Source: Sulfitobacter sp. (GTDB lineage Bacteria; Pseudomonadota; Alphaproteobacteria; Rhodobacterales; Rhodobacteraceae). Taken from it: a stretch of 64,000 nt of DNA. The translations under genes and the position numbers were made by a program. Below the pieces are notes generated by a model. That model saw nothing but the letters and a program-made list of their open reading frames with translations, was not told where the DNA came from and searched no databases. Of this stretch, positions 33,974 to 62,258 are shown in pieces; the first letter of the stretch is position 1; every line of letters starts with the position of its first letter. The DNA lies in the NCBI GenBank assembly GCA_039967155.1, contig JBDVSG010000159.1, positions 10,020 to 74,019 on the forward strand, written 5' to 3'.

Positions 33974-34325
33974 TCTGCCACGGTGATGCCCCCACCAAAA
34001 CAAGAGGCCAGCAAAACTACCTGGCAGCTGACGACGCCGACGCATTTCATTCCAAGTTCAAGACCCCGCAGACGATGGCCTATCTATATGGACTCAGCTG
34101 GCAAAGTCTTGGCGCAGAGTTAAGGCCAAAGGGTGAAAATCCGTTTTCCCCAAATGGGGAAGTTAATGGCAGCCTATTTCTGCGGAGCGATGCTGCCAGA
34201 GCGATCAAGTAACAGACTGAGATTATGAAAAAAGGACGGTACTCATTGCACCGTCCTTTTTTGTTGTTCCCAGAACAAGTCCTAAAACGGCTTTTCAGAT
34301 AACCTATGGTGTGATTCACGGAAAA
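33974..34325 (+). repeat. copy 0 of tniQ-3'-end / terminator / element-end module (tniQ fragment pseudogene; outermost ~18 bp missing)
   Basis: Aligns with 61886-62240. Translates ...DADAFHSKFKTPQTMAYLYGLSWQSLGAELRPKGENPFSPNGEVNGSLFLRSDAARAIK*, compared with the TniQ C-terminus ...DADAFHSKFMTPRTMAKEYGRSWQSLGAELRSKGVNPFSPNGEVYGSLFLRSDVAKEIQ*. Followed by a hairpin (34234-34256) and cctatggtgtgattcacggaaaa. Confidence 0.85.
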
Positions 34326-34356
34326 ATGGGCATTGATTTCATTAGGTAATTAACAC

Positions 34357-34400
34357 TGTGTCACAGCATATCTTTTCTTTTGAACACGATACCTTTTCCG
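34357..34400. repeat. imperfect terminal inverted repeat (left-end-like) matching the reverse complement of the tniQ-proximal ends
   Basis: tgtgtcacagcatatcttttcttttgaacacgataccttttccgg compared with rc(62209-62258) tgtcagtcacagcataccttttccgtgaatcacaccataggttttccg. The TGT terminus, gtcacagcata and cttttc blocks, and a second ttttccg block are shared. Confidence 0.65.
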
Positions 34401-34681
34401 GAGCAATTGTCCAATTCGGTGGTCTTTCACTTCCCGCAATTCATGGGGAAATCTGGAACCCACTCCAAGTAGGGCTGCAAAGTCAAACTTGTCCTCATAC
34501 GAAAGCAAAAGCGCGGCTGTACCAGTTACAGTCCCACTCTCCATTGATCAAAGGCCCCTACCCACTCCCCTTTCCGGATTTTCACTGCGCTTAACATTAA
34601 GGTCCCCCATGCGTGACTTTTCAGATCGTCATCGCAACTGTTCGAATGATTGGTATCAGGGATTTAAGAAACGTACTAATT

Positions 34682-35416
34682 TTAGAGGCTGCGTCCAAGC
34701 AGTGCCAATGCCGACAAGGTTGCCAGTCCAAGTGCCCATGGCCGAATTGCACCCCGCTCGAAGCGAGTGGCCAGTGGGCGAGACGCCCAAAGAGCAACTG
34801 GAACCAAGGGTGCGAGTGACGCCGCAAACGTAAGCTGTGGCAGCGTGAGAACGCCTGCCATGGATAACGCAACAATAGCTACCAGCGTTCCAAAACCGTA
34901 AAAGGCATTTTGAGTAGCAGCAGCCCTTCGTGTCTCGACATTGGCGTATAAAATGGCCATTGGAAGTGCCCCGATACCGGTAAGCGTTCCCATCACTCCA
35001 CTGACACCACCAGCAGTAAAGAGAGACCTGTTGGAAATAGGGAATGACCGCCCTAGTACGGTCAAGCCAACGGCAAAAAGCACGACTGAGCCAACAATGA
35101 TCGTTAGCGCATCCGTACCGACAACAGCCGTAGCGATGTATGCGGCAATTCCAGCACCGAAGATGCGGCCCGTAAATCCGGCTGGTAAGTCCCGCCACTG
35201 AACAGCATCGCGGCTACTCAAAAGCGACCCCGAGCCGATCAGGAACCCGACGAGGACAACTGTTCCAGGCAACCATTCGGGTGCGACCATCGCCATAACT
35301 GGCGCTGCAAACATTCCGTAGCCTGCCCCAGATAGCCGCTGAACAAGGGTCCCGACGAAGACTGTTATGGCACAAACAAGCCAAGGTGCGATTTCTGGCA
35401 GTAATGTAAGTGGCAT
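34682..35416 (-). CDS. TauE/SafE (TSUP) family anion exporter
   Basis: ORF trimmed to ATG 35416. Polytopic, with the VQRLSGAGYGMFAAPVM motif typical of TSUP proteins. Confidence 0.78.
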   Translation of the reverse strand: MPLTLLPEIAPWLVCAITVFVGTLVQRLSGAGYGMFAAPVMAMVAPEWLPGTVVLVGFLIGSGSLLSSRDAVQWRDLPAGFTGRIFGAGIAAYIATAVVGTDALTIIVGSVVLFAVGLTVLGRSFPISNRSLFTAGGVSGVMGTLTGIGALPMAILYANVETRRAAATQNAFYGFGTLVAIVALSMAGVLTLPQLTFAASLAPLVPVALWASRPLATRFERGAIRPWALGLATLSALALLGRSL

Positions 35417-35628
35417 TCTAAAACGTCTCTCTATCTGCAACACTTGATAATCATCCATGGAAATAGAGGTCATTTATCCATAGCGCAGCATCGGTCAGAA
35501 TGGGCTCGAAGCCGGTTCTGTGCGACTGAATGGTTGTTTTACGAACCTAATCAATTCTGGGGCACTTGACATGATACCGTTTGGCTTTATAAAAAGTGAT
35601 ACCATAAGGTATTACTTTAGGAATCGTA

Positions 35629-36054
35629 ATGAAAAACCTATTCAAGACCGCAGCAGTCGCGGTGATATCTACAACTGCATCCGTAACAGCAGAACCGATC
35701 ACACTTTTGGGCCCTAGTGACTTCGCATGGAAGACAACGCCCGAGGGGGTTGCATTTGCGTCCTTGCAGGGGGACAGGTTCGCGGAAGCCTACCAAGCAC
35801 TGGTGAAGCTTCCCGCAGGAACTGTTAGTCCGCCGCATGTTAAGACCGCCAATATGTATGGGGTCATGCTGCAAGGCGAAATGATCCACTACCTAAGTGA
35901 CGAAGATCCAGCGGCCGCGCGCAAAATGGGTCCTGGCTCGTTCTACAGCATCAACAGTGGCGCAGCACATGTTTCCGCCTGCGTCTCTGAAACACCCTGC
36001 ATTGCATATCTGTATCAGGATGGTGCCTTCGATTTTCTGCCGGTGTCACAATGA
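35629..36054 (+). CDS. secreted cupin-like protein (DUF4437-like)
   Basis: 141 aa with a signal peptide. KLPAGTVSPPHVKTANMYGVMLQGEM is cupin-like. Confidence 0.6.
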   Translation: MKNLFKTAAVAVISTTASVTAEPITLLGPSDFAWKTTPEGVAFASLQGDRFAEAYQALVKLPAGTVSPPHVKTANMYGVMLQGEMIHYLSDEDPAAARKMGPGSFYSINSGAAHVSACVSETPCIAYLYQDGAFDFLPVSQ

Positions 36055-36371
36055 CCGAGCAAGAGCAGTTAGGGTTCCGCGCGCTTGCTGACCCGACCCG
36101 GCGACATATCCTTCAGTTGCTTGCGACGAATAATATGACGATTGCGGAAGTCGCGGAGAACTTTGACATGACCCGAGCCGCGGTCAAAAAACACCTGACC
36201 ATCTTGAACGAAGGCAACCTTATTTCGGTTCAGGTGGACGGAAGAACGCGCATGAACGCGCTTAACCCAGATGGGCTGAGGCATCTGTTTGACTGGTTCA
36301 GTTACTTCGACGGGTTCTGGGATGGCCACCTCGAAAAACTCAAATTTGAAATTGAAAAGGACATGCAATGA
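36051..36371 (+). CDS. ArsR/SmtB family transcriptional regulator
   Basis: FRALADPTRRHILQLL...MTIAEVAENFDMTRAAVKKHLTIL is the classic ArsR HTH. ATGA overlaps on both sides. Confidence 0.9.
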   Translation: MTEQEQLGFRALADPTRRHILQLLATNNMTIAEVAENFDMTRAAVKKHLTILNEGNLISVQVDGRTRMNALNPDGLRHLFDWFSYFDGFWDGHLEKLKFEIEKDMQ

Positions 36372-36781
36372 CCGACACGGTTCTACAAAAATCCATCTAC
36401 CTCAAGGCGACGCCTGCGCAGGTGTGGGCGTATCTGACGGAACCTGCGAAACTTGCTATCTGGTTCCACAAACCCAAAACCGCTTTGGTCGAAGGTGAAT
36501 ACGAAATGTTCGGTGCCGAAAGCGGTGACAAACTTATGTGGGGCGAAGTGCTCCTCGCCGAACCATTCTCGCGGCTGGAATATACGTTTTCTATTGCTCC
36601 AATGGGGGACACGGTCAGTACGGTAAGATGGCACTTGGAAGAAGTGGCAGGCGGGACAAGACTTTCGCTAAGACACGAAGGCCTTCCACAGGGCGAAGAA
36701 GCATTCGGCCTGACATTAGCGCTGGATAAAGGTTGGGACGATCACTTGGCCCGCATGCGGGCTTCTGCCCACGACGATTGA
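36368..36781 (+). CDS. SRPBCC/AHSA1-domain protein
   Basis: 137 aa (VWAYLTEPAKLAIWF...). Usual partner of ArsR-type regulators. Confidence 0.8.
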   Translation: MTDTVLQKSIYLKATPAQVWAYLTEPAKLAIWFHKPKTALVEGEYEMFGAESGDKLMWGEVLLAEPFSRLEYTFSIAPMGDTVSTVRWHLEEVAGGTRLSLRHEGLPQGEEAFGLTLALDKGWDDHLARMRASAHDD

Positions 36782-36918
36782 GGCTCTCTGTTGCCGACTT
36801 TGATAGCACTTTAGCTCGGGTCGGCAACAAACCCACCAACAAGCAAATACCAGAGCGGGATTTGGCTGGATTGCTTAACCTTGGGCCCGCCCCTGCCTTC
36901 CGCAAAACCTGCTATCTC

Positions 36919-36952
36919 ATCGATCAGTTCAATATATCGATCAGTTCAATAT
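36919..36952 (+). repeat. perfect 17-bp x2 tandem duplication
   Basis: atcgatcagttcaatat occurs at 36919-36935 and again at 36936-36952, in a non-coding stretch. Confidence 0.95.
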
Positions 36953-37209
36953 TCTGTCCTTCTTAGGGGGCTTGACCCTTCAGTCGGGCCCACCAGCAAA
37001 ACGCGTCTACTGGTGCTGCATACGCCCCGATTTTGCGGTGATTGGCCGCATCTGGTAAAAAATTTGGTCGTTGTGACATCTTGCATGCGTTGACTTCCTG
37101 GGTGGGAACGCCCCCTCTTCCAAATACCGTCGTTCGGCCCCAACGGTACTGGTGAGCGGAGTGTCCCCGCAAAGTTGGCAAGACCAACCTTTTTGAAAGC
37201 CTCAGGACA

Positions 37210-38190
37210 TTAGAGCTCAGGAGCGCGCTGCATTTCGGTTTCATCCTCGCGGGAAAAATCCGGCATTGGTGCGCGGTTTACCGAAAATTCGAACAAGTCA
37301 CTGCGGTTATAATGCCCGCCGACATCCGAGGCTACTTTTGCTCCACGTATTGTTTTGGGGTCTACCTCGTGCACCAAAATCTCTTCGCCCGTTGCGGGTC
37401 CGGCAATCACTTCACCGCGGGCATCGATGATATAGCTGTCGCCGGTATGCTCAAATGACAAAAGGCTCTGAAACTCTTCAGGAACTGCCGCGGCGGATCG
37501 CAACCCGCCAACGCAAACAACATAGGCTGCAGCCTGAGACGCAAACGCCCGACTGAGCAACAGCTGCCTAGAGGACAAAGAGGCAGGAGCCGCAGGCGCT
37601 TGGGCAACTTCCATACCAGGCCACAAAGAGAAATGGACCTGCGTGCCTTGTTGCATCAACGCGTATCCTGGCAAAACGGTATTATGCTCCCAACAACACA
37701 ACGCGCTAAGGCGCCCGTAGGGGCGTTCATACACAACAAGCCCAGAGGCATCCCCATCAGACCAGACAACGCGCTCCTGCATCGTTGGCCGCGTTTTGCG
37801 ATGACGGCCTAAAATCTCACCCTGATTGGATATCATCAAGATTGTGCAATAGACCGATCCATGGGTGCGGGGTTCTCGCTCTACAACCCCAATGACCACA
37901 TCAATATTGGCAGCCTTGGCCGCGTCGCACAGCCGATCTGTTTCGGGCCCTGGAATGACAATCGATTGTTCCAGATACCGCGCGGCTGCTTCCCACCACA
38001 AAGGGGATAGTCCCTCCATGGCGAAAAAGCAGTGTCCGGGCAGCCAAGTCTCTGAAAAACCGGCAACGACCGCCCCCGTTTTCCCTGCCTCGGAGATCAA
38101 CCCGCAAGCTTTTTCCAAAGACTTCTGAACATCCATAAAAACAGGCGCAGATTGGATCGCTGCAACCTTGAACGGAGTTTGGGAAATCAT
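37210..38190 (-). CDS. nitrilase (carbon-nitrogen hydrolase superfamily)
   Basis: 326 aa with Glu-Lys-Cys triad contexts FSETW, HRKTRPT and LCCWEH. Confidence 0.9.
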   Translation of the reverse strand: MISQTPFKVAAIQSAPVFMDVQKSLEKACGLISEAGKTGAVVAGFSETWLPGHCFFAMEGLSPLWWEAAARYLEQSIVIPGPETDRLCDAAKAANIDVVIGVVEREPRTHGSVYCTILMISNQGEILGRHRKTRPTMQERVVWSDGDASGLVVYERPYGRLSALCCWEHNTVLPGYALMQQGTQVHFSLWPGMEVAQAPAAPASLSSRQLLLSRAFASQAAAYVVCVGGLRSAAAVPEEFQSLLSFEHTGDSYIIDARGEVIAGPATGEEILVHEVDPKTIRGAKVASDVGGHYNRSDLFEFSVNRAPMPDFSREDETEMQRAPEL

Positions 38191-38205
38191 GTTTTATCCT
38201 TTAGA

Positions 38206-39501
38206 TTAGCCCATCAAATTCGGCAGACCGGTTGCAATGATGGGAAAGAGACACACAAGCAACGCTGTGATCAGCATTGCTACGACAAACGGTGAGACAC
38301 CTCGAAAGATATCCCTTAATTTCAGGCTGGGGGCGGCTGCCTCGACGGTGAAGACGTTGATCCCGATTGGCGGCGTGATGAGGCCCAGTTCGATCAATAT
38401 GATCGTCAAAATGCCAAACCAAATCAGGTCCACATCGCGCGCTTCAAGCGTTGGCAAAAATACAGGAATGATCAGGACAAGGATCGAAAGCGGGTCAAAA
38501 ACCATCCCCATCAACACACATATGACCGCGATAAAGGCGATGATCGTCACCGTGCTGACATCTTTTGCTTCGATGAAGACAACAAGATCATTTGGCAGAC
38601 CCGCAAGGTTCACAAATTGTGCAAAGATCATTGCACCAATCCCGATCATAAAAATTGCGGCTGAAACACCGATGGCGCTAGAAAACGTATCGCGCCAATC
38701 CGCCCAACTGCGCATCCTGCCGCGCGAAACCGCAAATACAAGCGCCCCAAGCCCCCCAACACTGGCGGCTTCGGTCGGTGTCAGGATGCCAAAGTAAATC
38801 CCGCCCAAAACGACACCAAACAATACCAAAAACGCCCAAGTGCGCCGCATTGCAGCAAGCCGATCGATCATCGACATCTCATTTGGTTGTCCGCCATGTT
38901 CGGATTTCAGGCGGACCCATATCATGATCGCGACAATGAAAAGCCCCATCATCAACAAGCCTGGCACGACACCCGCCATGAACATTTTGCCAATATCCTG
39001 ACGGGCAAAAATGCAATAGATGACCATTGGCACGCTGGGCGGAATAAGGATGCCCAATGTCCCGCCAGCCGCGACTGTGCCCGCCGACATGCTGTCATGA
39101 TACCCAAATCGGCGCATTGGGGGCAAAGCCACCTTTGTCATTGCCGCAGCCGTCGCAACAGAGCTGCCACAGATCGATGAAAATGCGCCACAAGCGATGA
39201 CTGTCGACATCGCCAGCCCGCCTTTCAGGCGACCGACCAGAGCGTTGCCAAAATCATAAAGCTCTTCGGCAATGCCGCCACGGCGAATAAGCTCTCCCAT
39301 CAACATGAAAATTGGGATGATAACCAGATTTGAATTGGTCAACAGCTCGCCTGCTTGCTGTCCTGCCATCGACAGCGCAGGGTCAACGCCGCGAAGATAG
39401 GCAAATCCCGCCACCCCCACGGCTAAAGCCGCGAAACCAAGATGAACGCCAGAAAAAACGAGCAAAAGCAATGCCGCGATCCCGATCAATGACAGGGTCA
39501 T
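38206..39501 (-). CDS. TRAP transporter large permease (DctM type)
   Basis: 431-aa polytopic protein. Overlaps the small-permease gene (39498-39501). Confidence 0.9.
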   Translation of the reverse strand: MTLSLIGIAALLLLVFSGVHLGFAALAVGVAGFAYLRGVDPALSMAGQQAGELLTNSNLVIIPIFMLMGELIRRGGIAEELYDFGNALVGRLKGGLAMSTVIACGAFSSICGSSVATAAAMTKVALPPMRRFGYHDSMSAGTVAAGGTLGILIPPSVPMVIYCIFARQDIGKMFMAGVVPGLLMMGLFIVAIMIWVRLKSEHGGQPNEMSMIDRLAAMRRTWAFLVLFGVVLGGIYFGILTPTEAASVGGLGALVFAVSRGRMRSWADWRDTFSSAIGVSAAIFMIGIGAMIFAQFVNLAGLPNDLVVFIEAKDVSTVTIIAFIAVICVLMGMVFDPLSILVLIIPVFLPTLEARDVDLIWFGILTIILIELGLITPPIGINVFTVEAAAPSLKLRDIFRGVSPFVVAMLITALLVCLFPIIATGLPNLMG

Positions 39502-39986
39502 GATGCATCCTTTTGCGCAGGCAGGGCGAGCCGCAGAACCAAAACCACAGCCGCGAGCGTCAAAAGTGTCGCGACCACAACGAAAACCGCTCCGATCGAA
39601 ATATCGAGCACGGGAGAGTATTCATAATTTTCCAGCAAATGTTGCGCGTGGCGCCATATCAGGGCAGCAAACACGCTGGTGGCAATGACTTCCCACCCCG
39701 TTATCCATCCCCGATACGCCCAATCCGGCACTCTGCGTTGAATGGCATTTTCCAGCAACGTCACCCGAATATGATCCCGTTGAAACCCGCAAATAACAAA
39801 TCCAAAGCCCAAAAGGACAGCCAAAACGGATTGGTTCATTTCGCTGACGCCTAGAATTGGCTGTTGAAAGAAGTTCCGCATCACCACGTCCATTGCAGTC
39901 AGGACGGCAATGAACGCGCTACTCAAAATAGCTGCAAGCTGTGCCAAGAAGACAATCGCTTTCATGGCAAAACGCAGCAGGATCAT
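39498..39986 (-). CDS. TRAP transporter small permease (DctQ type)
   Basis: 162-aa 4-TM protein between the DctP and DctM genes. Confidence 0.85.
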   Translation of the reverse strand: MILLRFAMKAIVFLAQLAAILSSAFIAVLTAMDVVMRNFFQQPILGVSEMNQSVLAVLLGFGFVICGFQRDHIRVTLLENAIQRRVPDWAYRGWITGWEVIATSVFAALIWRHAQHLLENYEYSPVLDISIGAVFVVVATLLTLAAVVLVLRLALPAQKDAS

Positions 39987-41005
39987 CGCTTTGATACTTC
40001 GTCTAGCTTGGCTTGAAAGCTCTGGATCAAGGCTGCCCCATCCGCATCACGCTTTTTCGCAACTGTTCCAAAATCCTCAAAGAGCGCAGCACTGGCCTCT
40101 TGAAGCTCAGAGTAGAACTGATCATCCGCTTGCAAAAAGGTCACGCCTGCCTCGACGAACTCTGCGCGCGCCTCATTATAGGCCAAATCCGCAGCGACCC
40201 CGACCTGCTGGGCGAACACACCTCCTGAAATGGCCGAGATCGCTTTTTGGTCAGTTTCGGATATTTGATCCCATTTGTCCGAATTCATAACCATCGAAAA
40301 GCTGATCGATGACACCCACGATGGGAACTCTGTTATTGTTTTGACATAGGTGCCAATGCGAAAGTCGCGGGCACTCTCAATCGACAATCCGAAAACCCCG
40401 CTCACGACTCCGCTGGAGACCGGTTCACTGATCTGAACGGCGGGTGTCGTGACTGGGCTTATGCCTGTTTCGACAAGCAATTTGGTCGAAGCACCAGGCA
40501 ATGCCCACATTTTTCTGCCACGCATGTCATCCAGTGAATTAATCGGCGTGGCATCAGTTGTATACGCCTGTCCACCGGCGAAATGGAACAATGACAGCAG
40601 TTCAACGTCTTCATACAGCCCCTTGTCGGACAGATCTTCCTCATAGGTTTCCCAAAGCGCGATTGAGGCATCTTCAGCATTTGAAATCAGCCACGGCAGC
40701 ATCGTGAACGTTACCAAGGGCTCCTTTCGTTGAATGAAGATATTAGCGGCAACCGCAATGTCCGCGACCCCGGATGTCACCGCTCCATATTGCTGGTTGG
40801 GCGGTGCCAGACTGCCTGCGGGTGTCGTAATAGCAACGCGCCCCTGTGTGACTTCGTTCACTTTTTCAGCCCAACCGGTAAGCTCACCATACAAAAAATG
40901 TTGTTCCGGCAAGAAGATGTTCATCACGAGGTCGGTATCGGCTGCATGTGCAGCGGCCGAAGACAACAGCGCGCAGGCAAAGGGAAGTGCGTATTTGACT
41001 GACAT
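39983..41005 (-). CDS. TRAP transporter substrate-binding protein (DctP type)
   Basis: 340 aa with a signal peptide. First gene of the TRAP-nitrilase operon. Confidence 0.88.
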   Translation of the reverse strand: MSVKYALPFACALLSSAAAHAADTDLVMNIFLPEQHFLYGELTGWAEKVNEVTQGRVAITTPAGSLAPPNQQYGAVTSGVADIAVAANIFIQRKEPLVTFTMLPWLISNAEDASIALWETYEEDLSDKGLYEDVELLSLFHFAGGQAYTTDATPINSLDDMRGRKMWALPGASTKLLVETGISPVTTPAVQISEPVSSGVVSGVFGLSIESARDFRIGTYVKTITEFPSWVSSISFSMVMNSDKWDQISETDQKAISAISGGVFAQQVGVAADLAYNEARAEFVEAGVTFLQADDQFYSELQEASAALFEDFGTVAKKRDADGAALIQSFQAKLDEVSKR

Positions 41006-41129
41006 TTCAATTTCTTTCGGTTGATTATTTTTTTTGAGCTTACAGGATGAAATTCACTTAGGTATATCTTTTGCGGTCACCTTCTATACCGATTGGTTAT
41101 ATAGGTATGCCCCAACTGGGAGAGTTTGC

Positions 41130-42195: not shown

Positions 42196-42212
42196 GGCCG
42201 TGACGGGATACA

Positions 42213-49063: not shown

Positions 49064-49094
49064 GACTTAGATACTCGCGCCTCAATCCTTTTAG

Positions 49095-50815: not shown

Positions 50816-50861
50816 GCTGACGTCAGACAAGGTCTGCTTTTTGTGGGCGCAACAGTTTCGT

Positions 50862-53328: not shown

Positions 53329-53330
53329 TT

Positions 53331-55121
53331 TTAGGCCACCTGGATTTCATGCGAAGGGGTGGGAATTGTATAGAGCGGACGAATTGGATATCGTACCCGT
53401 AGCTCTCTGTCGGTCACCTTAAGAAGGGCTACTCCCAGCACTATGTCTAGGCCGATTTCGTCCGATAGAAGGTCCAAGCACTCAAAAGTAGCTCCTGATA
53501 CAATTAGCTCATCGACTACTATCGCCTGCATTCTTCGATCGCCCTTCAAGCCGGAAACCTCTCTCGCATACTTGACTTGCTCAACTAGGCGATCGATTTC
53601 GTCCAAGTGTTGTGCCAGCACCCCGGAAAGAGTAAATTTGCCCCTTTTGACATCGGTGAGATCATTCAGAAGGCATCGCGATACTGCGATCGATCTTTCG
53701 TTAGAAGTGCCTACGATGTGTTTAGATATTCGGCGCGCGGCGTCTTCGTTGACACACAATATTAAGTCGTTTTCTGATAGATTTCTTGAAATACAGGCCC
53801 GTAACTGGCTCCTGATGGCTAGAGTGAAGAACGCCAGGTTCCACTTTGTCATATTCCTAAAGTTTGGTACCGCGGGCAAAAATTCTCTATCTGGTCCGTA
53901 TTCTTCTGGTACAAATCCTGCTTCGATCATCATCGCCCAAATCTCTGCAGCTGAAAGCTTGTACTTCTTATGCGGATAACGGAGCACATCAATGTCAATA
54001 GGTAACGCCTTCCACATATCTTGGACCAAGGATGTATTCGTAACAACTGCAGCTTCATAGTGCAGATCAATCTGCATCACAGCATCTCCCTGCAGCCGTA
54101 ATACTAGTTTGCGAACGTTCTCGTCCACATATTTGCTATTACCCTCGTCAATTGTGCCGAGGCACCATGCAAATTCCGGCGGAGATGCGATGCCGCCTAG
54201 TATTGAGACAAACTGACCACCGGACCTAACTACAGAACAAAATACCGCATATTTTTTGTCGCTAACATCATGCAGCGAAACCTGATCGTGCCGTTGTATC
54301 GGCACAAACTCAATTCTCGAGTCGGCTAGCTTACTGGCATCATTAATAATTGTCGAGAACCACTCACGATCAGACAGATAAAATATCACGCTTATGTCGT
54401 TGGCTGCACAATGCTCGATCTTTTTCTGACAGAGCTGCAAGGCGTATTCACCACCCCTTGAAAAATCGTATGTAAAGGCAAATTTCTCCCCCACCGTCTG
54501 GCCGGTAAACAGACCTGGAACTCTAACGATAGTTGCCTCGTATTTTTTTTGAACGTTTGCAGTTTGCTCAAGGTAACTCTCAACGAAATCCTTCTTAACA
54601 TCTTCGCCAACTATATGAGCGGTCGATTTGTCTGTCGTTATGTTACCGGATGTAGCGTCTCCAGTAAATATAACGAAACCTTTCCCAGACCTCTTTATTT
54701 GGTCTAGTGCGGCAGCTTCAGGTGCTCCCTCAAGTAAAGAGCCGGGGCAAACAACAATAATTGCGCCGAGGCCACTTGCCAGCTTACTTTCGCAAAAATC
54801 AGCAATCCCAAAAAATATTTCTGGGTCAATTGGGTCAAATTGATTTGGCCCGCCTAAATCAAGAATTACATTTTCATTTGAACCTAGATCAGCCAGTGAC
54901 GCTTCCAACAGCTGCTTTACAGCACTACTAGCCATCCTAAAATTTGTTGAAATCCACTCAATCGGCAATATAGTTTGTAGGTTTGAAAGCGGGAATATCC
55001 GACTTGCTGCGTGCAATATCGATGCTTGTGCGCGGTCACCTAATTCGCGTCGAGTAGACTGCCCGAATCGTATAGGAAGAATATAATGTGTGCCACTTTG
55101 GTCAAATTCGAATGTTTTCAT
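53331..55121 (-). CDS. large protein with C-terminal type-I phosphoribosyltransferase (PRTase) domain
   Basis: 596 aa. PRPP-binding loop MQAIVVDELIVSGATFECL near the C-terminus. A possible second degenerate PRT-like segment (YAVFCSVVRSGGQF). The start ATG overlaps the upstream stop (ATGA at 55118-55121). Confidence 0.68.
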   Translation of the reverse strand: MKTFEFDQSGTHYILPIRFGQSTRRELGDRAQASILHAASRIFPLSNLQTILPIEWISTNFRMASSAVKQLLEASLADLGSNENVILDLGGPNQFDPIDPEIFFGIADFCESKLASGLGAIIVVCPGSLLEGAPEAAALDQIKRSGKGFVIFTGDATSGNITTDKSTAHIVGEDVKKDFVESYLEQTANVQKKYEATIVRVPGLFTGQTVGEKFAFTYDFSRGGEYALQLCQKKIEHCAANDISVIFYLSDREWFSTIINDASKLADSRIEFVPIQRHDQVSLHDVSDKKYAVFCSVVRSGGQFVSILGGIASPPEFAWCLGTIDEGNSKYVDENVRKLVLRLQGDAVMQIDLHYEAAVVTNTSLVQDMWKALPIDIDVLRYPHKKYKLSAAEIWAMMIEAGFVPEEYGPDREFLPAVPNFRNMTKWNLAFFTLAIRSQLRACISRNLSENDLILCVNEDAARRISKHIVGTSNERSIAVSRCLLNDLTDVKRGKFTLSGVLAQHLDEIDRLVEQVKYAREVSGLKGDRRMQAIVVDELIVSGATFECLDLLSDEIGLDIVLGVALLKVTDRELRVRYPIRPLYTIPTPSHEIQVA

Positions 55122-56473
55122 TGTTTTTCTTGCTCGGGGATACTTATGCTAATCAAGTTTCCCAAGAATTTTGGTAAATTATTTGGCAACTCTTGGATAT
55201 CCACAACATAGTCATGTCTCTTAATTTTAGAGCCATTGAGTTTCTTGCTTTTTTTACCCTTCGTTACTCTTATGATTACGTTGGAAGTGCGGATGATTAC
55301 CTTTCCTCCAAAGTTTGCCACCGCAGTATCCAGCAGCAAGTACAAACCCATCCCAACTGATGCCAACCTCGGGTCGTCCTCAGTTGTTTCCTCGGTACTT
55401 GCATGGCCAAACAGCGTTGGTGACATGCTTACAAAAGGCTGTAATACAAATAGTAGCTTTTCACTAATATGACTTGACGGTTCGGCATCGAGATCAGAAC
55501 CGACAACTCTATCAATCGATTGACTTTTACTTTCCGAGTTCTTCCACTTTAAACGATAGCTCCGAAAGTACTTTCCGGGGCTACTTGTTCGGAATGTCTT
55601 TTTTGTCGCTAGATTTTCTTCAATTAGATCTAACAGTGAGCGGCCGTTGTCCCAGTAATGAACTACTGCGCTTTTACTTGCTTGCTTTTTGTTTCTTTGC
55701 GTCTTGTTGAATGGCAACGTGAGTTGTTGGCTTCTGTCGTATATGTATCTGGTGTGAGTAGCTGTTTGTACTATCTCCGCGGAGGGATGACGCAAGGCAT
55801 TGAAAACCGCCTCAAAGATCACACGTGCTGAAAAGTAGCGTACATCAATTCCAAGATCGCGCTCTAATAGTGTCTTAACGTTATGGTTTTGCCAGAAGCG
55901 TTTCTCATCGTTGGCGAGCTCTGGTTTCTCATGGACATTTGACGGGACCTTTATGGTTCGGAAACCGAAAAAATTGGGTCGGATCGATTCGTCATCGTCA
56001 CCATCGTCGTTCGTCGGAATTTTGTAGTGAGTTGGAAATTCGTCTAGGTCAAAAGTTGACTGCGAATCGTTCGGAAAAAAATACTTTTGTCTCGTCTCGT
56101 CATCACTAAATCGATACATTCGTCTACCGGTTGCAGCTTTGAGAGCGTCGTCAAAATTCCAAACTCTCATAATGTCCCGAACAGATTTTTTCTCAGGTAG
56201 CGAAATCGTTGTGGAGATGCCATTGCGATCCCATGCAGTAAGGTAAGAAATTAGAACTTGTGCGCTATAGCAATCCATGAACGTCACGTGAGTCAGATCG
56301 ACATGGATGCTTTGCACAGCACCACGGTTCTTCCGGAGCGTTTTAGCCAACTGCAGCTCAAACTGGCTGCCTACCATCGCTTCCTGAATGCTTAAAAGCA
56401 TGTAGGACCTGTTGGGTTTGGAGAATCTTCGGCTGATAACTTTGTCATAATGCAAAGGTAAGTAGGCGAACAT
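55118..56473 (-). CDS. STAS-domain / GHKL (SpoIIAB-RsbW-like) ATPase-kinase fusion protein
   Basis: 451 aa. STAS-like SIHVDLTHVTFMDCYSAQVLISYL...VRDIMRVWNFDDAL. GHKL N-box FEAVFNALRH, DNG, GMGLYLL. No HisKA H-box. Start (56473 vs the internal Met, codon 25 at 56401) is uncertain. Confidence 0.62.
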   Translation of the reverse strand: MFAYLPLHYDKVISRRFSKPNRSYMLLSIQEAMVGSQFELQLAKTLRKNRGAVQSIHVDLTHVTFMDCYSAQVLISYLTAWDRNGISTTISLPEKKSVRDIMRVWNFDDALKAATGRRMYRFSDDETRQKYFFPNDSQSTFDLDEFPTHYKIPTNDDGDDDESIRPNFFGFRTIKVPSNVHEKPELANDEKRFWQNHNVKTLLERDLGIDVRYFSARVIFEAVFNALRHPSAEIVQTATHTRYIYDRSQQLTLPFNKTQRNKKQASKSAVVHYWDNGRSLLDLIEENLATKKTFRTSSPGKYFRSYRLKWKNSESKSQSIDRVVGSDLDAEPSSHISEKLLFVLQPFVSMSPTLFGHASTEETTEDDPRLASVGMGLYLLLDTAVANFGGKVIIRTSNVIIRVTKGKKSKKLNGSKIKRHDYVVDIQELPNNLPKFLGNLISISIPEQEKQ

Positions 56474-56535
56474 GAGATAAACTCAACGAAATTCGCCCAA
56501 TGGTTCAACGATCCTGTTAAATTTAGACTGATCTG

Positions 56536-57060
56536 TTACGTTCGCGCCACTTCGTATCGCATGATGTGTCGCTCCACAGTACGGAAAATCACATATACAC
56601 CTAGCACGCAAACAATCCAGCTGGCTATGTTGGGTAAAATCTGCAGGCCACTGCTCCATGCGATTTGAGTGCAAAAAACTGATACGCCGCCAAACGCGAT
56701 TACATCAATGATTGCTTGAATTCGCTTGCGCAGCCTTCGCCAGGCCTCCTTTTCAATCTGCGCTTCCCAAACAAGCTCATTGGGATATTGTGCTTTGAGA
56801 AAGTCGCGGATGCCTGATATTTTTACTTCATTTTCTAAATATAAGTGGCCGAGTAGGCTCGCGACGAACGCCAGTATTATCCAAGCATCGACTGGCGATG
56901 CTGGAAGCAATGCGTATCCGCCTAAACCACCGTAAGCTGCAAATGCCGCGTAAAACAGACCATCTCGAAATTTGATCCGATCCCTTTGTTCCGCTTTCAC
57001 TTCCGCAAATTCTGCTAGTTTCCATTCTGTGTTTGCCACCGTAGTTTTATCTCCCGTCAT
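56536..57060 (-). CDS. 4-TM membrane protein, unknown function (first gene of the operon)
   Basis: ORF 56536..57138 trimmed to ATG 57060 (MTGDKTTVANTEW...). Two helix pairs separated by a charged about 45-aa loop. 62 nt upstream of the next gene. Confidence 0.5.
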   Translation of the reverse strand: MTGDKTTVANTEWKLAEFAEVKAEQRDRIKFRDGLFYAAFAAYGGLGGYALLPASPVDAWIILAFVASLLGHLYLENEVKISGIRDFLKAQYPNELVWEAQIEKEAWRRLRKRIQAIIDVIAFGGVSVFCTQIAWSSGLQILPNIASWIVCVLGVYVIFRTVERHIMRYEVART

Positions 57061-58175
57061 GTAACTCTTCCAAACTTTGGCCAAATATCCATAGCATCTT
57101 AACAACCGCGAGATATATTGAATGCATCGCGTCGGCAAAACTGCCTAGCGGACGTTGTTTTAGAGGCCCAAATTGTCATTTTCTGTAGATGGATCAAATA
57201 TCATCCAACGCCATCAATCTATAGTTCATTCAGCCTCTCGGACATAACAAAATGAAAATTTTCCGCGTCTGTCCTCTACCAACCTTATTTCCTTGGCAAT
57301 CAAAAAACGGTCGCTTTGCCCGTCAGGTCACAACATTACGTTTGCGGCTGTTGTTTGGGAAAGCGCTCTGTTCAGCCATTTGAAGGAGAACCGATGGGGC
57401 AGGCAAGTTTGTTGTATTCTGAGGGGCTTGATGGTCTCGATTTCTGTTGAAAAACAAACTACTATGACGTGCTCTGCGTTCACCGGTACATATCAAAAAA
57501 TCAGCCCTCGGGCTCCATCAATAGTTCAACTTCCTCATATTTTGGAGTTCGTTGGTCTCATAGTTTGGTCAATTCCTGAACAAAACCGGATGGATTATCG
57601 GCGAGGCCTCCCCTGGCTCCGAGCATTCGATCTTGGTGCAAATCTTGGTACGTCTTTGAGCGGTGCTAAGTTTCATTTTTCTAGCATTTTACTGCTAAGG
57701 CGTTGAAGCTAAATTGCTTCTGATCTAATTAGAGCTAATGAAAGGGTGAATCTCGCAATCCCTTCGTCTCCGCCCTTTTCAGACAGCCCCTTCACTGCAG
57801 ATCTGCTTTCAAGTTTCCGCCAGCGGTCGTTCGTCTTCTTTGCAACTTCAAACATTGCGGTCTCTTTGCCGCAATCGGAGCAAACACAGAATTCTTGGGT
57901 TCGGCCTCTCGTCGAATGGCGGCTTTTGATGGATCACTTTTGAGGCCGCGCACCCGCAGCGAAGGTCCGGAATCCGCCGTGTTCCGCTGTCCCAGCGAAT
58001 GTCTCCTTCGACAGGCTGTACTGCGGCAATACAAGCGGTAGGCCAATGGACGCAATGGGCCGTCCTCGAAACAGTGGTCCACTAAGCTCACACCTAAACT
58101 GCTCCGTCTCCGCAGCCAATTATCGGCCCAAACGACTGACGCCCCAACTAAGTAACCGCCCTGTTCAAGCTTGTA

Positions 58176-58838
58176 TCAACGCTGAAAACTCACTGGTTTA
58201 GGGTACAAGAGTTCGATTTCTTGCTGTGTTGTTGGAATACCTTCAATCGGCCACCAAAGATGATCCGCATTAGGGATAATCGTCAGAAAGAAGGGCTCAA
58301 CCTGAGTGCTTCTGTCGAAGTAGTTTAGTGCGCCAAAACAGATAACCTGTTCCAATTCGGGATCAAAGAGGAGAACTTGAGGTTTGAATTCAATTTGTAG
58401 AGCAGCGCTTGGAGCAACAATGCTCTCCTTGGTTGACCAGAACTCGACTTCTAAACCGTCATTTTCTTTTGAATGCCCCATGGCATTGTCCAGTCCAAAG
58501 GTGCACCTTAAATTCGAGCCAAAATTTGCTGACTTGTTGCCAAAATTGTAGGCGCTTAGATTGATTATCTTGCGTTCACTATCGAAGTACCCCGAAAGAT
58601 TAACTTCTAAGTCCGGGTAAAACTCATCATAGAAGTCCAATAGTGTTCGACTTCCAAGTGATGCGACGGACAGTAATGCGACTAACAGGGCAAGCGACGT
58701 ATTTGAAATACCAACGTGCCTTCGCCAGTTCTGCCAAGAACCGCATTCCAAGCAGACTTTCTGATCCGTTTTTAGGGAAGAACCACACGCCCAGCAAACT
58801 TTTTCCTTCAACGCTCTTCTCCGAAAATATTGGTTCAT
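58176..58838 (-). CDS. zinc-ribbon / single-TM / beta-rich ectodomain protein, unknown function
   Basis: 220 aa. CWACG...CLECG zinc ribbon, TM helix SLALLVALLSVASLG, then an about 150-aa non-repetitive domain. Confidence 0.55.
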   Translation of the reverse strand: MNQYFRRRALKEKVCWACGSSLKTDQKVCLECGSWQNWRRHVGISNTSLALLVALLSVASLGSRTLLDFYDEFYPDLEVNLSGYFDSERKIINLSAYNFGNKSANFGSNLRCTFGLDNAMGHSKENDGLEVEFWSTKESIVAPSAALQIEFKPQVLLFDPELEQVICFGALNYFDRSTQVEPFFLTIIPNADHLWWPIEGIPTTQQEIELLYPKPVSFQR

Positions 58839-58931
58839 AAGCTATTTGAAATAAAGTCTCATGTGTTGCTGAATAACTGATCACGGACAAAATCACTACT
58901 TCCTTTTGGCCCCAAATCCCGCAGAATAGTC

Positions 58932-59010
58932 CAAAGTCTGCTTTGGTGAGCTGCACCACAGCACCAACCATCTAGGTCAAGGTCAGCTTCGGGCCGTTCA
59001 TTCGATCGTG
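58932..59010 (+). repeat. dispersed repeat copy A
   Basis: caaagtctgctttggtgagctgcaccacagcaccaaccatctaggtcaaggtcagcttcgggccgttcattcgatcg. Confidence 0.55.
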
Positions 59011-59057
59011 AGCGGCAGCGACCCGCAGGAAGCGGCCCTCACGAGGAGTCCAAGTTT

Positions 59058-59903
59058 TCAGCTTCCCTGACTGGCAGCCGCAACCTTCGCTTTCTTGTGT
59101 TCTTGCGCTTCTTTGTTCCGCAAGCGGCTAGCGTTCTTCGCCAACTCCACAGCTGTTTGAAGAAAGATTTCAACCAGCTGAAGCCGGTCTTCTTTGTTTT
59201 CCCAAAGATCAATGGTGGCCCAAAGCACCCCGAGCGTTGTCTTGGACAGCTCGCGTAAATTATACTTCATGTCATCGGGACCGGCCATGTAGCTATTATC
59301 GGTCGCATACATAAGTACATTCCGCCCGTTTGCCATATCGTGAAGATACCTTAGAGCGGCGGCTTCTTCAGAATACATTGCATAGATTTCTTGCGCGAAT
59401 GAATAAACCAGTTCGCCATCAGCACCGCTCATATTAAGAATTTTCAAGGAAGCAGGTGCATAACTGGCTTTGTCTTCATCGTTAAATCGGACAATGATCC
59501 GGTCTTTGTCTTTAGAATATGCCAGTGCGAGCTTGTAGTCCTTACTAACTCTATTAGTCACCTCCGTTAAGACCCAGCTTAGCGCCGACTTGTAACTGTG
59601 ATTACCGATGTTGAATTGATCTGTAAGGTCTGCGTATTGGCCGACGGATGCGCAGCCGACGAATGCCACCACCGCCTCTTCGAGAGCATGTGTCAGGCAG
59701 AACGTGGCCGGAACGCTGAATCTGTATCGTCTATCCAACGATGAGTGGAGCGTCGAAATGCCGCCCGCCCAATACAACGCACTCAAAGCATTGTTTGCAC
59801 GGAACTTAGCTTCATCTGGCAAATCGCCAATTCTGGCCCGCACCCACAATGCCATCTCGCTCTCCACCATGCGGAGCAATTCGGGGTGAATTTTCGTGGA
59901 CAT
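59058..59903 (-). CDS. hypothetical protein (281 aa), no recognised domain
   Basis: Clean ORF with moderate AT bias. Lys/Ala-rich C-terminal tail. Flanked by direct copies of the dispersed repeat. Confidence 0.55.
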   Translation of the reverse strand: MSTKIHPELLRMVESEMALWVRARIGDLPDEAKFRANNALSALYWAGGISTLHSSLDRRYRFSVPATFCLTHALEEAVVAFVGCASVGQYADLTDQFNIGNHSYKSALSWVLTEVTNRVSKDYKLALAYSKDKDRIIVRFNDEDKASYAPASLKILNMSGADGELVYSFAQEIYAMYSEEAAALRYLHDMANGRNVLMYATDNSYMAGPDDMKYNLRELSKTTLGVLWATIDLWENKEDRLQLVEIFLQTAVELAKNASRLRNKEAQEHKKAKVAAASQGS

Positions 59904-60072
59904 TTTTTAGGCCTTTTGAATTTAGAACGCCATTATCATCGCCCGAGAATATTGAAACATCAATGTCATGCGTCGGGCAGCCTCAATTTTTGTCCCAAAG
60001 ACCATGCTACCTAAGGTGCAGCTTCGTCCACACCACAGACCTCGACTTGCCAGTCAATACTGTGAGTTGCGA

Positions 60073-60140
60073 CAAAAGTCTGCTTCGGTGAACTGCGGTG
60101 CGGCATCTGTCGGTGTACCAAACGTCCGGTTTGGGCCGAG
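60073..60140 (+). repeat. dispersed repeat copy B
   Basis: caaaagtctgcttcggtgaactgcggtgcggcatctgtcggtgtaccaaacgtccggtttgggccgag. Same orientation as copy A. Confidence 0.5.
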
Positions 60141-60268
60141 AGTGTAGCTACAGTCCGTATCCCGTAAATTTGCAACCAAACGTAGGTTTCGATGCCGGCT
60201 CAATTATTTGGCTACCGAAATTTGGCCTGATGCTAATTAAAAGTTGTTCTTTTCAAACGGGCGCATAA

Positions 60269-62125
60269 GTGGACTCTATGAAATCAGATCACCGCAAGCG
60301 CCCCTTAAAGTTGCAGCCTTCACACAAGTCTGGAGAAACAGCCATGTCCCTGGTTTCTCGGATCGCAGCAAGTTTTGGCACTGACGCAAAAACCTTTTGC
60401 CTCCACAAGGGCACGTCCTTCCTTCGAGTGATTAGTGGTGACCAGGCCGCGTTCAACAAGTTGAAACGCTTCGGTGTTTCAATTCCGGACGGGGTTCTCT
60501 TCTGGAGCCCTGTTCGAAAGCCGTCGAGTATACGTGAGTTTATAGGCCACCGCTTCCCCAGCAAGGTAATTTTAGGTTCTGAGGTAAGAGGATGCCCGGT
60601 ATGCCTTCGTCAGGATGCTAAGACTTCAGACGCCCCAGCCCATGTAGCAATGACCATGCAGGGGAACTGGTTAGTACCGCATGTCACCCTGTGCCTCAAA
60701 CATCAGCATCCGCTTGTACCGCTCTGGCATGACACGGTCCCTGCTTCACGCTACGATTCCGCACCCCACCTCGAAATCCTCACACATGACGTTTTATCCG
60801 GTTTACTGGATCAGAAATCTCGAGATGCAACAGATTTCGATATTTGGATAGAAGCTCGGCTTTGCGGTGAGCAAGGTAGCGGATGGTTGGATCAAATGCC
60901 CCTCCACCCTGCGGCAAATTTCTGCTTCATGCTGGGGAGCGCGCTTCTGCGTCATGAAATGGAGACCCCGACTTACGCAGCCAAGGAGGATCGTTGGGCA
61001 GTGTATCAGATGGGGTATGCGGTTGCCCGTCATGGACAATCAAATGTGGCGACTGCTTTTAGAAACCTTCAAACACTTCCTGGCGGTCCTCATGACGGTC
61101 CGAAGAAAATTTTTCCGGTTCTCTACGAGAGACTGGCCCACTATTACGCTGATAATGCGGATTACGAGCCGTTCCGGGACCTTCTACGTCAGCATATGTT
61201 AGAAACTTGGCCTTTGGGCGTTGGCGATGAGCTACTTGGTCAGCCGGTCACAGAACGCAAAACTCACTCCGTTCTGACAGCCTCCCGAACCACAGGCATT
61301 GATCAGCGCCGCCTGCGGAAGTTGCTGGCTGCAGTGAACATTGTAAGGGACGCTGAATCAGGTCTATCCGATGCTTGGGAAGTCTTTGATGCTGAGCTTG
61401 CCAAGCCAATTCTGAACGAGCTTTCTACTCTGGTTGATGCAAAGGCCTTTGCTTCCCTAATTGGGGCAACTCGCTCACAGTTTGATAGGCTGGTAAAGGA
61501 TGGTGTCATAAGGCCGGAATTAAGTGGAACGGACCTTAAAACCACCTGGAGTCCTTCTGAGGGGGCCAAATTTTTAGATAGCCTTCGTATGGGTGCTGTT
61601 CAGCTAAGGCATGCAAAACAAAATTGGGTGCATCTCTCGAAATCAGCCCAACGGCTCAAAATTGGCCCAGGCTCAATAGTGAGAGCAATTCAGGATGGCC
61701 AGATCAAAAGAGTTGGCAATCATGTTTGTTTTGTTGGGTACGCCGCAATTTTCGTTGATCACGATGAGGTGGTAAATGTGCTCAGTACCGACGCTCCCGA
61801 TGCGCAAAGTATTGAAATCTTTGCTAAGACCGTTGGCATCAACCAACCAAGCAGAATGCGTCGTCTTATAGCCAACGGACATACGTCTGCCACGGTGATA
61901 CAAAACCCCAAAACAAGAGCTCAGCAAAACTATCTGACAGTAGAGGACGCCGACGCATTTCATTCCAAGTTCATGACACCGCGGACGATGGCCAAGGAAT
62001 ATGGACGCAGCTGGCAAAGTCTTGGCGCAGAGTTAAGGTCGAAGGGTGTAAATCCGTTTTCCCCAAATGGAGAAGTTTATGGCAGCCTATTTTTGCGGAG
62101 CGATGTAGCCAAAGAAATCCAGTAA
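60269..62125 (+). CDS. tniQ: TniQ family protein (Tn7 TnsD/TniQ-type target selector)
   Basis: 618 aa. N-terminal TniQ pattern LQPSHKSGETAMSLVSRIAASFG and zinc-finger-like RGCPVCL...LCLKHQHPL. Long helical C-terminal region. Start could be 60278. Confidence 0.82.
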   Translation: MDSMKSDHRKRPLKLQPSHKSGETAMSLVSRIAASFGTDAKTFCLHKGTSFLRVISGDQAAFNKLKRFGVSIPDGVLFWSPVRKPSSIREFIGHRFPSKVILGSEVRGCPVCLRQDAKTSDAPAHVAMTMQGNWLVPHVTLCLKHQHPLVPLWHDTVPASRYDSAPHLEILTHDVLSGLLDQKSRDATDFDIWIEARLCGEQGSGWLDQMPLHPAANFCFMLGSALLRHEMETPTYAAKEDRWAVYQMGYAVARHGQSNVATAFRNLQTLPGGPHDGPKKIFPVLYERLAHYYADNADYEPFRDLLRQHMLETWPLGVGDELLGQPVTERKTHSVLTASRTTGIDQRRLRKLLAAVNIVRDAESGLSDAWEVFDAELAKPILNELSTLVDAKAFASLIGATRSQFDRLVKDGVIRPELSGTDLKTTWSPSEGAKFLDSLRMGAVQLRHAKQNWVHLSKSAQRLKIGPGSIVRAIQDGQIKRVGNHVCFVGYAAIFVDHDEVVNVLSTDAPDAQSIEIFAKTVGINQPSRMRRLIANGHTSATVIQNPKTRAQQNYLTVEDADAFHSKFMTPRTMAKEYGRSWQSLGAELRSKGVNPFSPNGEVYGSLFLRSDVAKEIQ

Positions 62126-62147
62126 CAGGCTGATATAATAAATAAAA

Positions 62148-62184
62148 GGAACGGAGCTCGCTGCTCCGTTCTTTCTGTTTTTTG
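62148..62184 (+). terminator. rho-independent terminator after tniQ
   Basis: ggaacggagc tcgct gctccgttc(t) stem followed by ttctgtttttt. Confidence 0.8.
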
Positions 62185-62208
62185 CAAACTCAAGCTTTAA
62201 AACAGCTC

Positions 62209-62258
62209 TGCGGAAAACCTATGGTGTGATTCACGGAAAAGGTATGCTGTGACTGACA
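62209..62258. repeat. element terminal sequence (right/tniQ-proximal end), ends ...ACA
   Basis: tgcggaaaacctatggtgtgattcacggaaaaggtatgctgtgactgaca is 50/50 identical to 42451-42500. It contains two cggaaaa sub-repeats, and similarity to the other copy stops exactly here. Confidence 0.8.

Follow-up and report, generated by a model that had tools for sequence, protein, structure and literature searches.

A stack of apparent Tn7-like transposon right ends downstream of nrdJ in a Sulfitobacter genome

Introduction

A 64-kb stretch of DNA from Sulfitobacter sp. (contig JBDVSG010000159.1, positions 10,020 to 74,019; hereafter the window) was analysed. It contains an island of 28 kb (33974-62258) between tctA and nrdJ, and within this island the 3' end of a tniQ gene, together with the terminator and the terminal sequence that follow it, is present three times in the same orientation. 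The three occurrences are referred to as copy 0, copy 1 and copy 2, copy 2 being the one next to nrdJ and copy 0 the one farthest from it. Here we describe the copies, their counterparts in other genomes and the left ends and cargo genes that lie between them, and we weigh the readings of the island, among them the insertion of Tn7-like transposons beside nrdJ. For comparison, 150 related loci were retrieved (numbered L001 onward). A scan of a genome collection with a TniQ profile yielded 67 loci, the titles of which name Rhodobacterales almost throughout; the two exceptions are metagenome-assembled genomes (MAGs) titled Puniceicoccaceae bacterium and Candidatus Limiplasma sp. As a reverse test, a metagenome scan with the C-terminus of nrdJ yielded 80 loci, about 75 of them informative.

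Results

Three tniQ right ends in one orientation

The repeat search returned two three-copy direct families (D1 and D2) that cover all three positions. In local alignments copy 2 matched copy 0 at 295 of 351 positions (84.0%; 61886-62240 against 33974-34325) and copy 1 at 243 of 286 positions (85.0%; 61972-62258 against 42213-42500), and copies 0 and 1 were 86.1% identical over 267 nt. The 23-mer CCTATGGTGTGATTCACGGAAAA has three exact occurrences in the window, one per copy, and the terminal 18-mer GGTATGCTGTGACTGACA has exactly two, at 42483-42500 and 62241-62258. Neither was found in shuffled sequence (100 shuffles for the 23-mer).

Each copy closes a tniQ reading frame. Copy 0 holds an in-frame stub of about 80 codons with its own stop (34210-34212) and copy 1 one of about 50 codons (stop at 42364-42366), while copy 2 alone is joined to a full-length tniQ (60269-62125, 618 aa), the product of which matches the Pfam family TniQ (PF06527) with E = 1.2e-11 and 45.8 bits against a cut-off of 27. 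Every tniQ stop is followed by a hairpin and a T-run (34228-34261, 42386-42419 and about 62146-62175). The folding energies are -23.4, -30.0 and -25.5 kcal/mol, and the stems vary among the copies through compensatory changes. The terminal 50 nt consist of two abutting tandem 23-nt repeats (class 1 in Table 1) and end in ACA. In copy 1 the repeats were located at 42453-42471 and 42476-42494 and the ACA at 42498-42500; the corresponding positions in copy 2 are 62211-62229, 62234-62252 and 62256-62258. In copy 0 the match ends after ...CACGGAAAA at 34325, where its inner 23-nt repeat also ends, and the outer 18 nt, that is the outer repeat and the terminus, are gone.

Counted inward from the ACA, copies 1 and 2 are identical over exactly 50 nt. 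Deeper inward, at 60-120 nt, only 5-8 of 10 positions match in each 10-nt bin, and outside the ACA the two flanks are unrelated (8 of 40 positions match). This anatomy had been read from the letters alone in an initial annotation of the DNA, which listed the three copies in one orientation, the stub, stop, hairpin and motif in each, the 50/50 identity of the termini of copies 1 and 2 with divergence farther in, the end of their similarity at the ACA, the missing outer 18 nt of copy 0, and the full-length tniQ on copy 2 only. Repeat search, pairwise alignment and position-wise comparison bore out all of these points. The annotation had also taken the terminal 50 nt for a transposon end, and here too the evidence agrees: in inverted orientation the motif also makes up a left end, both in the window (34361-34400) and in L152 and L153, two metagenome contigs with autonomous elements. 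Beside nrdJ, other genomes retain the terminus, and the ACA is the point where similarity breaks off. The 23-nt repeats would be the sites bound by the transposase TnsB.

Table 1. Features of the island and of the nrdJ flank, with the end classes found at the nrdJ site. Positions are those of the window.
Feature	Position	Strand	Basis or description
Copy 0, class-1 right-end remnant	33974..34325	+	repeat search, alignment, motif
Truncated class-1 left end: spacer (ATGGGCATTGATTTCATTAGGTAATTAAC...) and two inner inverted repeats	34326..34402	+	minus-strand motif matches, L152/L153 alignment
Cargo of the middle unit	34403..42212	.	Pfam: TauE-like exporter, cupin, ArsR, AHSA1/SRPBCC, nitrilase-family hydrolase, TRAP transporter DctPQM, LysR
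Copy 1, complete class-1 right end	42213..42500	+	repeat search, alignment, motif, 94.5% identity to L001 element
7-bp junction CTCACAT, class-1 right end to next left end	42501..42507	.	sequence
Complete class-3 left end, terminus AGCCAGAAAAA	42508..42655	+	motif, L038 comparison
Cargo of the nrdJ-proximal composite	42656..60120	.	Pfam and further searches
Class-1 tniQ/right-end module, including copy 2 (61886-62258)	60121..62258	+	Pfam, motif, homology to L001/L152
19-nt spacer, transposon terminus to nrdJ stop	62259..62277	.	insertion point at left edge; not conserved between genomes
nrdJ 3' part (B12-dependent ribonucleotide reductase), convergent with tniQ	62278..63999	-	Pfam Ribonuc_red_lgC and TSCPD
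End class 1 (that of the window)			tandem CGGAAAA-NN-TATG-N-TGTGA repeats, ending ...GTGACTGACA
End class 1b			related to class 1; ending ...TCACA or ...CGACA
End class 2			...GATGTCGGACGTCA
End class 3			TTGCGCACGCTT...TTTTTCTGGCT

The insertion site downstream of nrdJ

In the MAG locus L001 the distance from terminus to nrdJ stop is 19 nt, as in the window. More generally, in about 38 of the 67 TniQ-profile loci tniQ is convergent with nrdJ, with the element end some 15-24 nt away from the nrdJ stop codon. This one site is used by at least four end classes (Table 1). Most environmental nrdJ loci are empty: about 69 of the 75 informative ones carry neither tniQ nor a recognisable end, and in these the DNA similarity to the window ends at 62274-62284, around the nrdJ stop. 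Among the 80 metagenome loci, tniQ material was present downstream of nrdJ in L082 and L110 only, and a recognisable end in L073, L082, L083, L087, L110 and L119 only. The site is therefore polymorphic for the presence and absence of elements, a property to which the initial annotation had tied its reading of the repeats.

Conservation was expressed as the majority-base fraction over 115 loci. It reaches 0.77-0.92 within the final 60 nt of nrdJ and drops to 0.33-0.43 beyond the stop codon. A conserved gene end next to a spacer that is not conserved is the pattern expected if TniQ reads the end of the gene in the way that TnsD reads glmS, and by this analogy the last ~60 nt of nrdJ are presumably the region recognised by TniQ.

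Relatives that carry the transposition genes

At E <= 0.001 the window TniQ has 126 homologues. All of those with a source name are from Rhodobacterales, and where labelled they are named TniQ family proteins. Many of the TniQ loci among L005-L071 lie at contig ends of draft assemblies, which fits multi-copy or repeated ends breaking the assemblies. A tblastn search of a plasmid collection with TniQ returned only relatives of at most 31% identity and no useful complete element.

In L001 the TniQ is 92% identical to that of the window and its gene is likewise convergent with nrdJ. On the opposite strand, 4.5-8.6 kb upstream of tniQ, this locus carries a TnsA-like gene (272 aa), tnsB (779 aa) and tniB (319 aa), and the same set is found in L152 and L153, where TniQ is 94% identical. 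The L001 TnsB matches the solved TnsB proteins of Tn6677 (2.5e-12) and PseCAST (5.5e-11), with rve and Mu-transpos_C Pfam matches that fall below the cut-off. The L001 TniB scores 47.6 bits against PF05621 (cut-off 22.4), and TniB is present in L152, L153 and L038 as well. The match of the 272-aa protein to the NCBIfam model TnsA_like is weak (E = 2.3e-6, 27 bits against a cut-off of 110), and no Pfam or PDB sequence match was obtained for it. Of the proteins that mark a Tn7-like element, TniQ is thus encoded in the window itself, and TnsB and TnsC/TniB in the relatives only.

L152 and L001 show an autonomous element of the family, in which the order is left end, cargo, the block tniB-tnsB-tnsA-like-Zn-ribbon, a variable cargo slot, tniQ, terminator and right end. 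The block reads toward the left end, and tniQ is last and reads outward. Homology among the window, L001 and L152 starts at one point, 148 bp upstream of tniQ (window 60121, L001 9779, L152 1522), and L001 and L152 differ solely in the cargo slot, which holds OmdA, hydrolase, WYL and DUF2322 genes in the former and an ApeA-like protein of 577 aa in the latter. Judged by this alignment, the variable cargo slot, which lies between the Zn-ribbon gene and tniQ, has a fixed right-hand limit at position 60121.

A different arrangement was seen in Cereibacter azotoformans (L003, 10001-18187, and L004). There a 610-aa TniQ, 55% identical to that of the window, is convergent with a second TniQ of 25% identity that closes a collinear operon of a 287-aa gene, tnsB, tniB and tniQ, and the locus is not at nrdJ.

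We also considered that the copies might be attachment-site repeats of tandem islands, integrated by a site-specific recombinase of the tyrosine or serine type for which the tniQ 3' end is the target and which brings a replacement 3' end with it. Direct repeats that contain the 3' end of a gene are typical of integrase-driven islands, but the scanned open reading frames (ORFs) of the interval include no integrase, and relative to the intact gene the displaced copies are on the upstream side, not downstream. The termini are moreover inverted repeats with multiple 23-nt sites, the relatives encode TnsB and TniB, and none of the 150 related loci holds an integrase-bearing relative excising between the repeats. 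Such an origin is in our judgement extremely improbable.

Left ends and junctions between elements

Left ends were detected through a degenerate repeat motif and by comparison with L152 and L038 only. The class-1 left end of L152 has one terminal and two spaced inner repeats, all inverted, and the right end stops at ACA. Window positions 34326-34402, directly after copy 0, align to the spacer and the two inner repeats of the L152/L153 left end. The inner repeats are found at 34361-34379 and 34382-34400, inverted, and the terminal repeat is missing. Because this terminal repeat and the outer 18 nt of copy 0 are both absent, the arrangement reads as one small deletion across a right-end/left-end junction that took both abutting termini, possibly with GAAAA as microhomology at 34325/34326. 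L152 has a comparable junction deletion, in which a class-3 right end lacks 17 nt and a class-1 left end about 6 nt.

The second left end is of class 3 and starts 7 bp past the ACA of copy 1. Its repeats lie at 42519-42533 and, as a spaced inner pair of the TTGCGCACGCTT type, inverted, at 42621-42632 and 42641-42652. The left end that adjoins TniB in L038 has the same architecture, and the class-3 motif is the nrdJ-side end in many genomes. The junction CTCACAT and the copy-2 flank GCTACAT have ACAT in common. Junction spacers measure 5 bp in L046, 6 bp in L038 and 7 bp in the window. The L046 case (12020-12074) is one of two class-3 right ends standing tail to tail with 5 bp (CTCCG) between them, each preceded by its own full-length tniQ; this locus is not beside nrdJ.

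No inverted copy of the terminal 18-mer was found in the window with up to 3 mismatches allowed, nor was the class-2 end motif found there, and no further end remnant was detected in 42656-60120. A candidate left end at 57322-57346 was rejected as a chance match, since it has 3 mismatches (1 match against 0.57 expected), no second repeat and no support from relatives. The TGT side of the termini was not seen: there is no intact class-1 left terminus, and class-3 termini end differently.

Divergence of the copies

The copies have their nearest relatives in other genomes. Copy 1 is closer to the L001 element (Table 1) than to copy 2 (85%), the copy-2 module is 95.5% identical to L152, and a stub of 41 codons in L082 has the same amino-acid sequence as copy 2. 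Copies 1 and 2 differ mostly at synonymous positions, with proportions of synonymous (pS) and nonsynonymous (pN) differences of 0.27 and 0.08 and a pN/pS of 0.30. The ratio is 0.12 between copy 1 and L001 and 0.5-0.77 between copy 0 and the other copies, the most relaxed of the three, all of these values being based on just 40-62 codons. The relaxed change in the sequence of copy 0 fits the longest time as a pseudogene. Taken together, the sequence relationships indicate that the three copies stem from separate donor lineages.

These results bear on whether the 3' end of tniQ could simply have been duplicated in place, by replication slippage or unequal recombination and with no independent insertions. 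That copies 84-86% alike stand as direct repeats in one orientation within 28 kb is what a local segmental duplication would give, yet copies 0 and 2 are only 85-86% identical to copy 1, which is far nearer to an element in another genome. The mainly synonymous divergence of copies 1 and 2 and the compensatory changes in the stems point to divergence while the genes were functional, and each copy ends at a transposon terminus, or is truncated beside one, and is then followed by an element left end. We consider local duplication very improbable. It is on the nearest relatives in other genomes and on the substitution patterns that we base a history of serial insertion and decay and not of duplication in situ.

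Remnants in other genomes

Tandem or remnant structures were found in L001, L012, L017, L018, L036, L038, L050 and L152, and remnants made of a stub plus an end have arisen independently in L082, L087 and L119. The stubs start at different places, near codon 570 in copy 1 and near codon 578 in L082, and L050 retains more upstream fragments; a common start near codon 540 (L018, L050 and copy 0), considered as a module boundary, was rejected.

In four loci remnants of 29-360 nt lie between a complete tniQ/right end and nrdJ: L001 11918-11951 (29 nt), L017 2205-2354 (about 150 nt), L018 2376-2839 (105 nt) and L012 5830-6216. In L017 and L018 a terminator and an end are all that remains. Each of the four remnants begins, on its left, no more than about 5 nt from where the distal element has its intact terminus. 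This pattern suggests either deletions that start from the junction and run to one side only, or new elements that inserted into residents in their proximal part.

Cargo genes and flanks

The cargo of the nrdJ-proximal unit comprises genes for a Fic protein (SoFic-like), BKACE, a catechol dioxygenase, an alpha/beta hydrolase, LysR and an MR/MLE enzyme, then a minus-strand run (52327-57138) and genes for a Zn-ribbon protein of 220 aa and a protein of 281 aa. A Pfam search of the ORFs of the interval found no transposition genes besides tniQ. The Fic-domain gene (42799-44001, plus strand) lies directly inside the class-3 left end, and its product matches the PADLOC SoFic model at 4.4e-27. The minus-strand run encodes proteins of 200 aa, 451 aa (STAS), 596 aa (no family match) and 333 aa (PNP/nucleosidase-like), the last of which is matched by two PADLOC models, 'Effector PN-superfamily' (8.4e-24) and PDC-M60C. 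The four genes possibly form a defence system that travelled as transposon cargo.

On the far side of the island, a tct regulator and tctCBA at 27763-33943 are syntenic with positions 3365-11773 of L025 (Litoreibacter sp.), at 61-90% amino-acid identity, and the contig of L025 also encodes a TniB (P0123). None of the retrieved genomes has tctA adjoining nrdJ. The tct genes may represent old cargo and not chromosomal flank. Another TctA paralogue, of 498 aa, is encoded on the minus strand at 10390-11886, at a distance of 20 kb to the left of tctCBA. An insertion sequence (IS) transposase fragment (rve, ORF of 117 aa) borders the tct two-component genes and tctCBA on their left side, at 27249-27700. 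A similar IS fragment is located downstream of nrdJ in L075; the synteny of that locus with window positions 27466-27700 was considered as an empty-site flank and was rejected, because it reflects the shared rve fragment, beside which lie IS3-like ORFs.

Discussion

The most probable reading, to which we assign a probability of roughly 85%, is that the three copies are right-end modules of Tn7-like transposons of Rhodobacterales that home to the site downstream of nrdJ, and that the island is a stack of decayed insertions. As nothing in the window is able to move on its own, mobility is deduced from the relatives. Under this reading TniQ would recognise the conserved 3' coding end of nrdJ, and insertion would be orientation-specific, about 19 nt past the nrdJ stop and with the right end toward nrdJ; the terminator would keep tniQ transcription from entering nrdJ in antisense. 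Each new element would land between the resident right end and nrdJ. Three layers can be proposed on this model. Farthest from nrdJ would be copy 0, a right-end remnant. It would be followed by a unit of 8.1 kb, bounded by the truncated class-1 left end (34326) and the intact right end (42500), that has lost tnsA, tnsB, tnsC and most of tniQ, and then by a composite of 19.7 kb from the class-3 left end (42508) to the class-1 tniQ and right end (62258). This composite is probably two elements fused by an internal deletion, which would have taken out the tns genes together with a right end and a left end. The persistence of right-end stubs, as fossils that vary in length, would follow from deletions being able to enter an element from its left side only, given that nrdJ is presumably essential.

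The initial annotation had inferred that related elements landed repeatedly at one locus, the newest nearest nrdJ, and that older elements then lost most of their content by deletion. Repeated landing is supported by the distinct affinities of copy 1 and of the copy-2 module, by the pN/pS of 0.30 between copies 1 and 2, and by the left ends of two classes directly after copies 0 and 1. Loss by deletion is supported also, with the refinement that even the nrdJ-proximal unit lacks tnsA, tnsB and tnsC. The order of arrival is another matter. The rule that the newest element lies nearest nrdJ is plausible in the window and does not hold in general, given the nrdJ-side remnants of L001, L012, L017 and L018.

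Those same remnants agree with another history for elements of the same kind, in which newcomers inserted into the right-end-proximal part of residents or a pre-assembled composite arrived once. The left end at 34326 and the right end at 62258 are of the same class, and the 27.9 kb between them could have moved as a unit. If this were so, the order along the chromosome would not be the order of age, and the newest element would not be the one nearest nrdJ. Against it, the sole intact tniQ of the window is the one nearest nrdJ, the farthest copy is the most decayed in both its substitutions and its lost terminus, and the ACAT that the 7-bp junction shares with the nrdJ flank is what serial insertion predicts. 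We judge this other history quite unlikely.

Several observations weigh against a stack of serial insertions as set out above. A tblastn search with three divergent TnsA/TnsB/TniB sets found no tnsA, tnsB or tnsC in the 64-kb window. The class-1 left terminus is deleted, the nrdJ-proximal unit is bounded by ends of two different classes, and no unit in the window or in the retrieved loci has both termini with native flanks. The sequences flanking 42508 and 62258 (CACAT and GCTAC) do not match, and a 5-bp target-site duplication could be verified for no unit. In L025, as in the window, tniQ material directly follows tctCBA, there a gene for a full TniQ of 603 aa (48% identical), and the tct cluster, as possible old cargo, may belong to the island. 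The order of arrival given above is tentative, short remnants lying on the nrdJ side of a complete end in L001, L017 and L018, and the mobility and function proposed for the family are read from sequence.

A more speculative idea, which we think unlikely but worth stating, is that abutting right-end/left-end junctions are fragile sites and, further, that stubs or orphan tniQ genes are possibly kept for target immunity. Transposase cutting at such junctions would lead to repair deletions anchored there. This would explain the paired loss of termini at 34325/34326 and in L152, the remnants of L001, L012, L017 and L018 that start at the neighbour's intact terminus, and the abundance of fossils that consist of a tniQ stub and a right end. 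Target immunity is described for Tn7-like elements (PMC11014353); if stubs or an orphan intact tniQ were to confer it, the nrdJ site would be guarded against new insertions. The pattern of junction deletions is the one part of this work that might repay further study.

The analysis defines a widespread Tn7-like family in marine Rhodobacterales (Roseobacter-group bacteria). With at least four end classes at one site, the family offers a natural system for the study of transposon competition, target immunity and decay. Cargo islands in these genomes can be delimited by three landmarks: the ACA that lies about 19 nt beyond the stop of nrdJ, the 23-nt repeats, and the layout of the left end. The cargo includes candidate defence genes. 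The TniQ/nrdJ pair could in principle be used as a site-specific insertion tool for alphaproteobacteria.

The nrdJ attachment site appears to be undescribed as far as we found, and the gene layout is unusual. In the library searched, no paper connects nrdJ with TniQ or with Tn7-like elements, and the site is unmentioned in a cargo survey and a target-selector survey (PMC8649781, PMC10293859). Attachment sites of Tn7-like elements are known at further ribonucleotide reductase genes, namely nrdB in Acinetobacter and, in archaea and some Firmicutes, nrdD. The elements at the nrdB site of A. baumannii are described as what is left of an ancestral insertion, their ends being degraded (PMC11014353; bioRxiv 10.1101/2025.07.27.667033). 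The elements described here share with these the choice of a reductase gene as a safe-harbour attachment site, and differ in reductase class (nrdJ), host clade (Rhodobacterales) and TniQ lineage.

Tn6022 and the AbaR islands are similar in that Tn7-like elements form composite islands, there through repeated or internal insertions and deletions despite target immunity (PMC11014353). Unlike the present elements, Tn6022 inserts within comM by means of TniQ and TnsF and has collinear genes, and no TnsF-like protein was seen here. With Tn5053 and Tn402 (TniA, TniB, TniQ, TniR) the nrdJ elements have in common the Pfam families TniB and TniQ and a TnsB/MuA-like transposase. Tn5053-type elements, however, lack TnsA, carry a resolvase and a res site and target the res sites of plasmids, whereas the nrdJ elements have a TnsA-like gene before tnsB and target the chromosomal 3' flank of nrdJ. 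L001, L152 and L038 contain no resolvase, and we do not assign the elements to the Tn5053/Tn402 group.

The comparison with Tn7 itself shows differences first in the target, which is glmS for Tn7 and nrdJ here. In the nrdJ elements tniQ is separated from tnsABC: it occupies the right end and is transcribed out of the element through a terminator of its own, and the tnsABC genes are transcribed in the direction of the left end. Two repeats can be recognised in the right end, against four in Tn7, no second pathway of the tnsE type was seen, and the copies in the window are without transposase genes. In other respects the elements resemble Tn7 and attTn7: the relatives at nrdJ encode a heteromeric transposase set (a putative TnsA-like protein, TnsB, TnsC/TniB), the nrdJ elements encode a target selector of the TniQ/TnsD family, insertion is oriented and takes place some 20 nt beyond the stop codon of a conserved gene, toward which the right end points, and the ends are asymmetric, with several repeats of about 22 nt and a right end that stops at ACA. 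The accretion of Tn7-like elements at an attachment site is likewise an already known phenomenon; Parks and Peters are said to have reported in 2007 that successive Tn7-like elements and vestigial ends accrete at one site.

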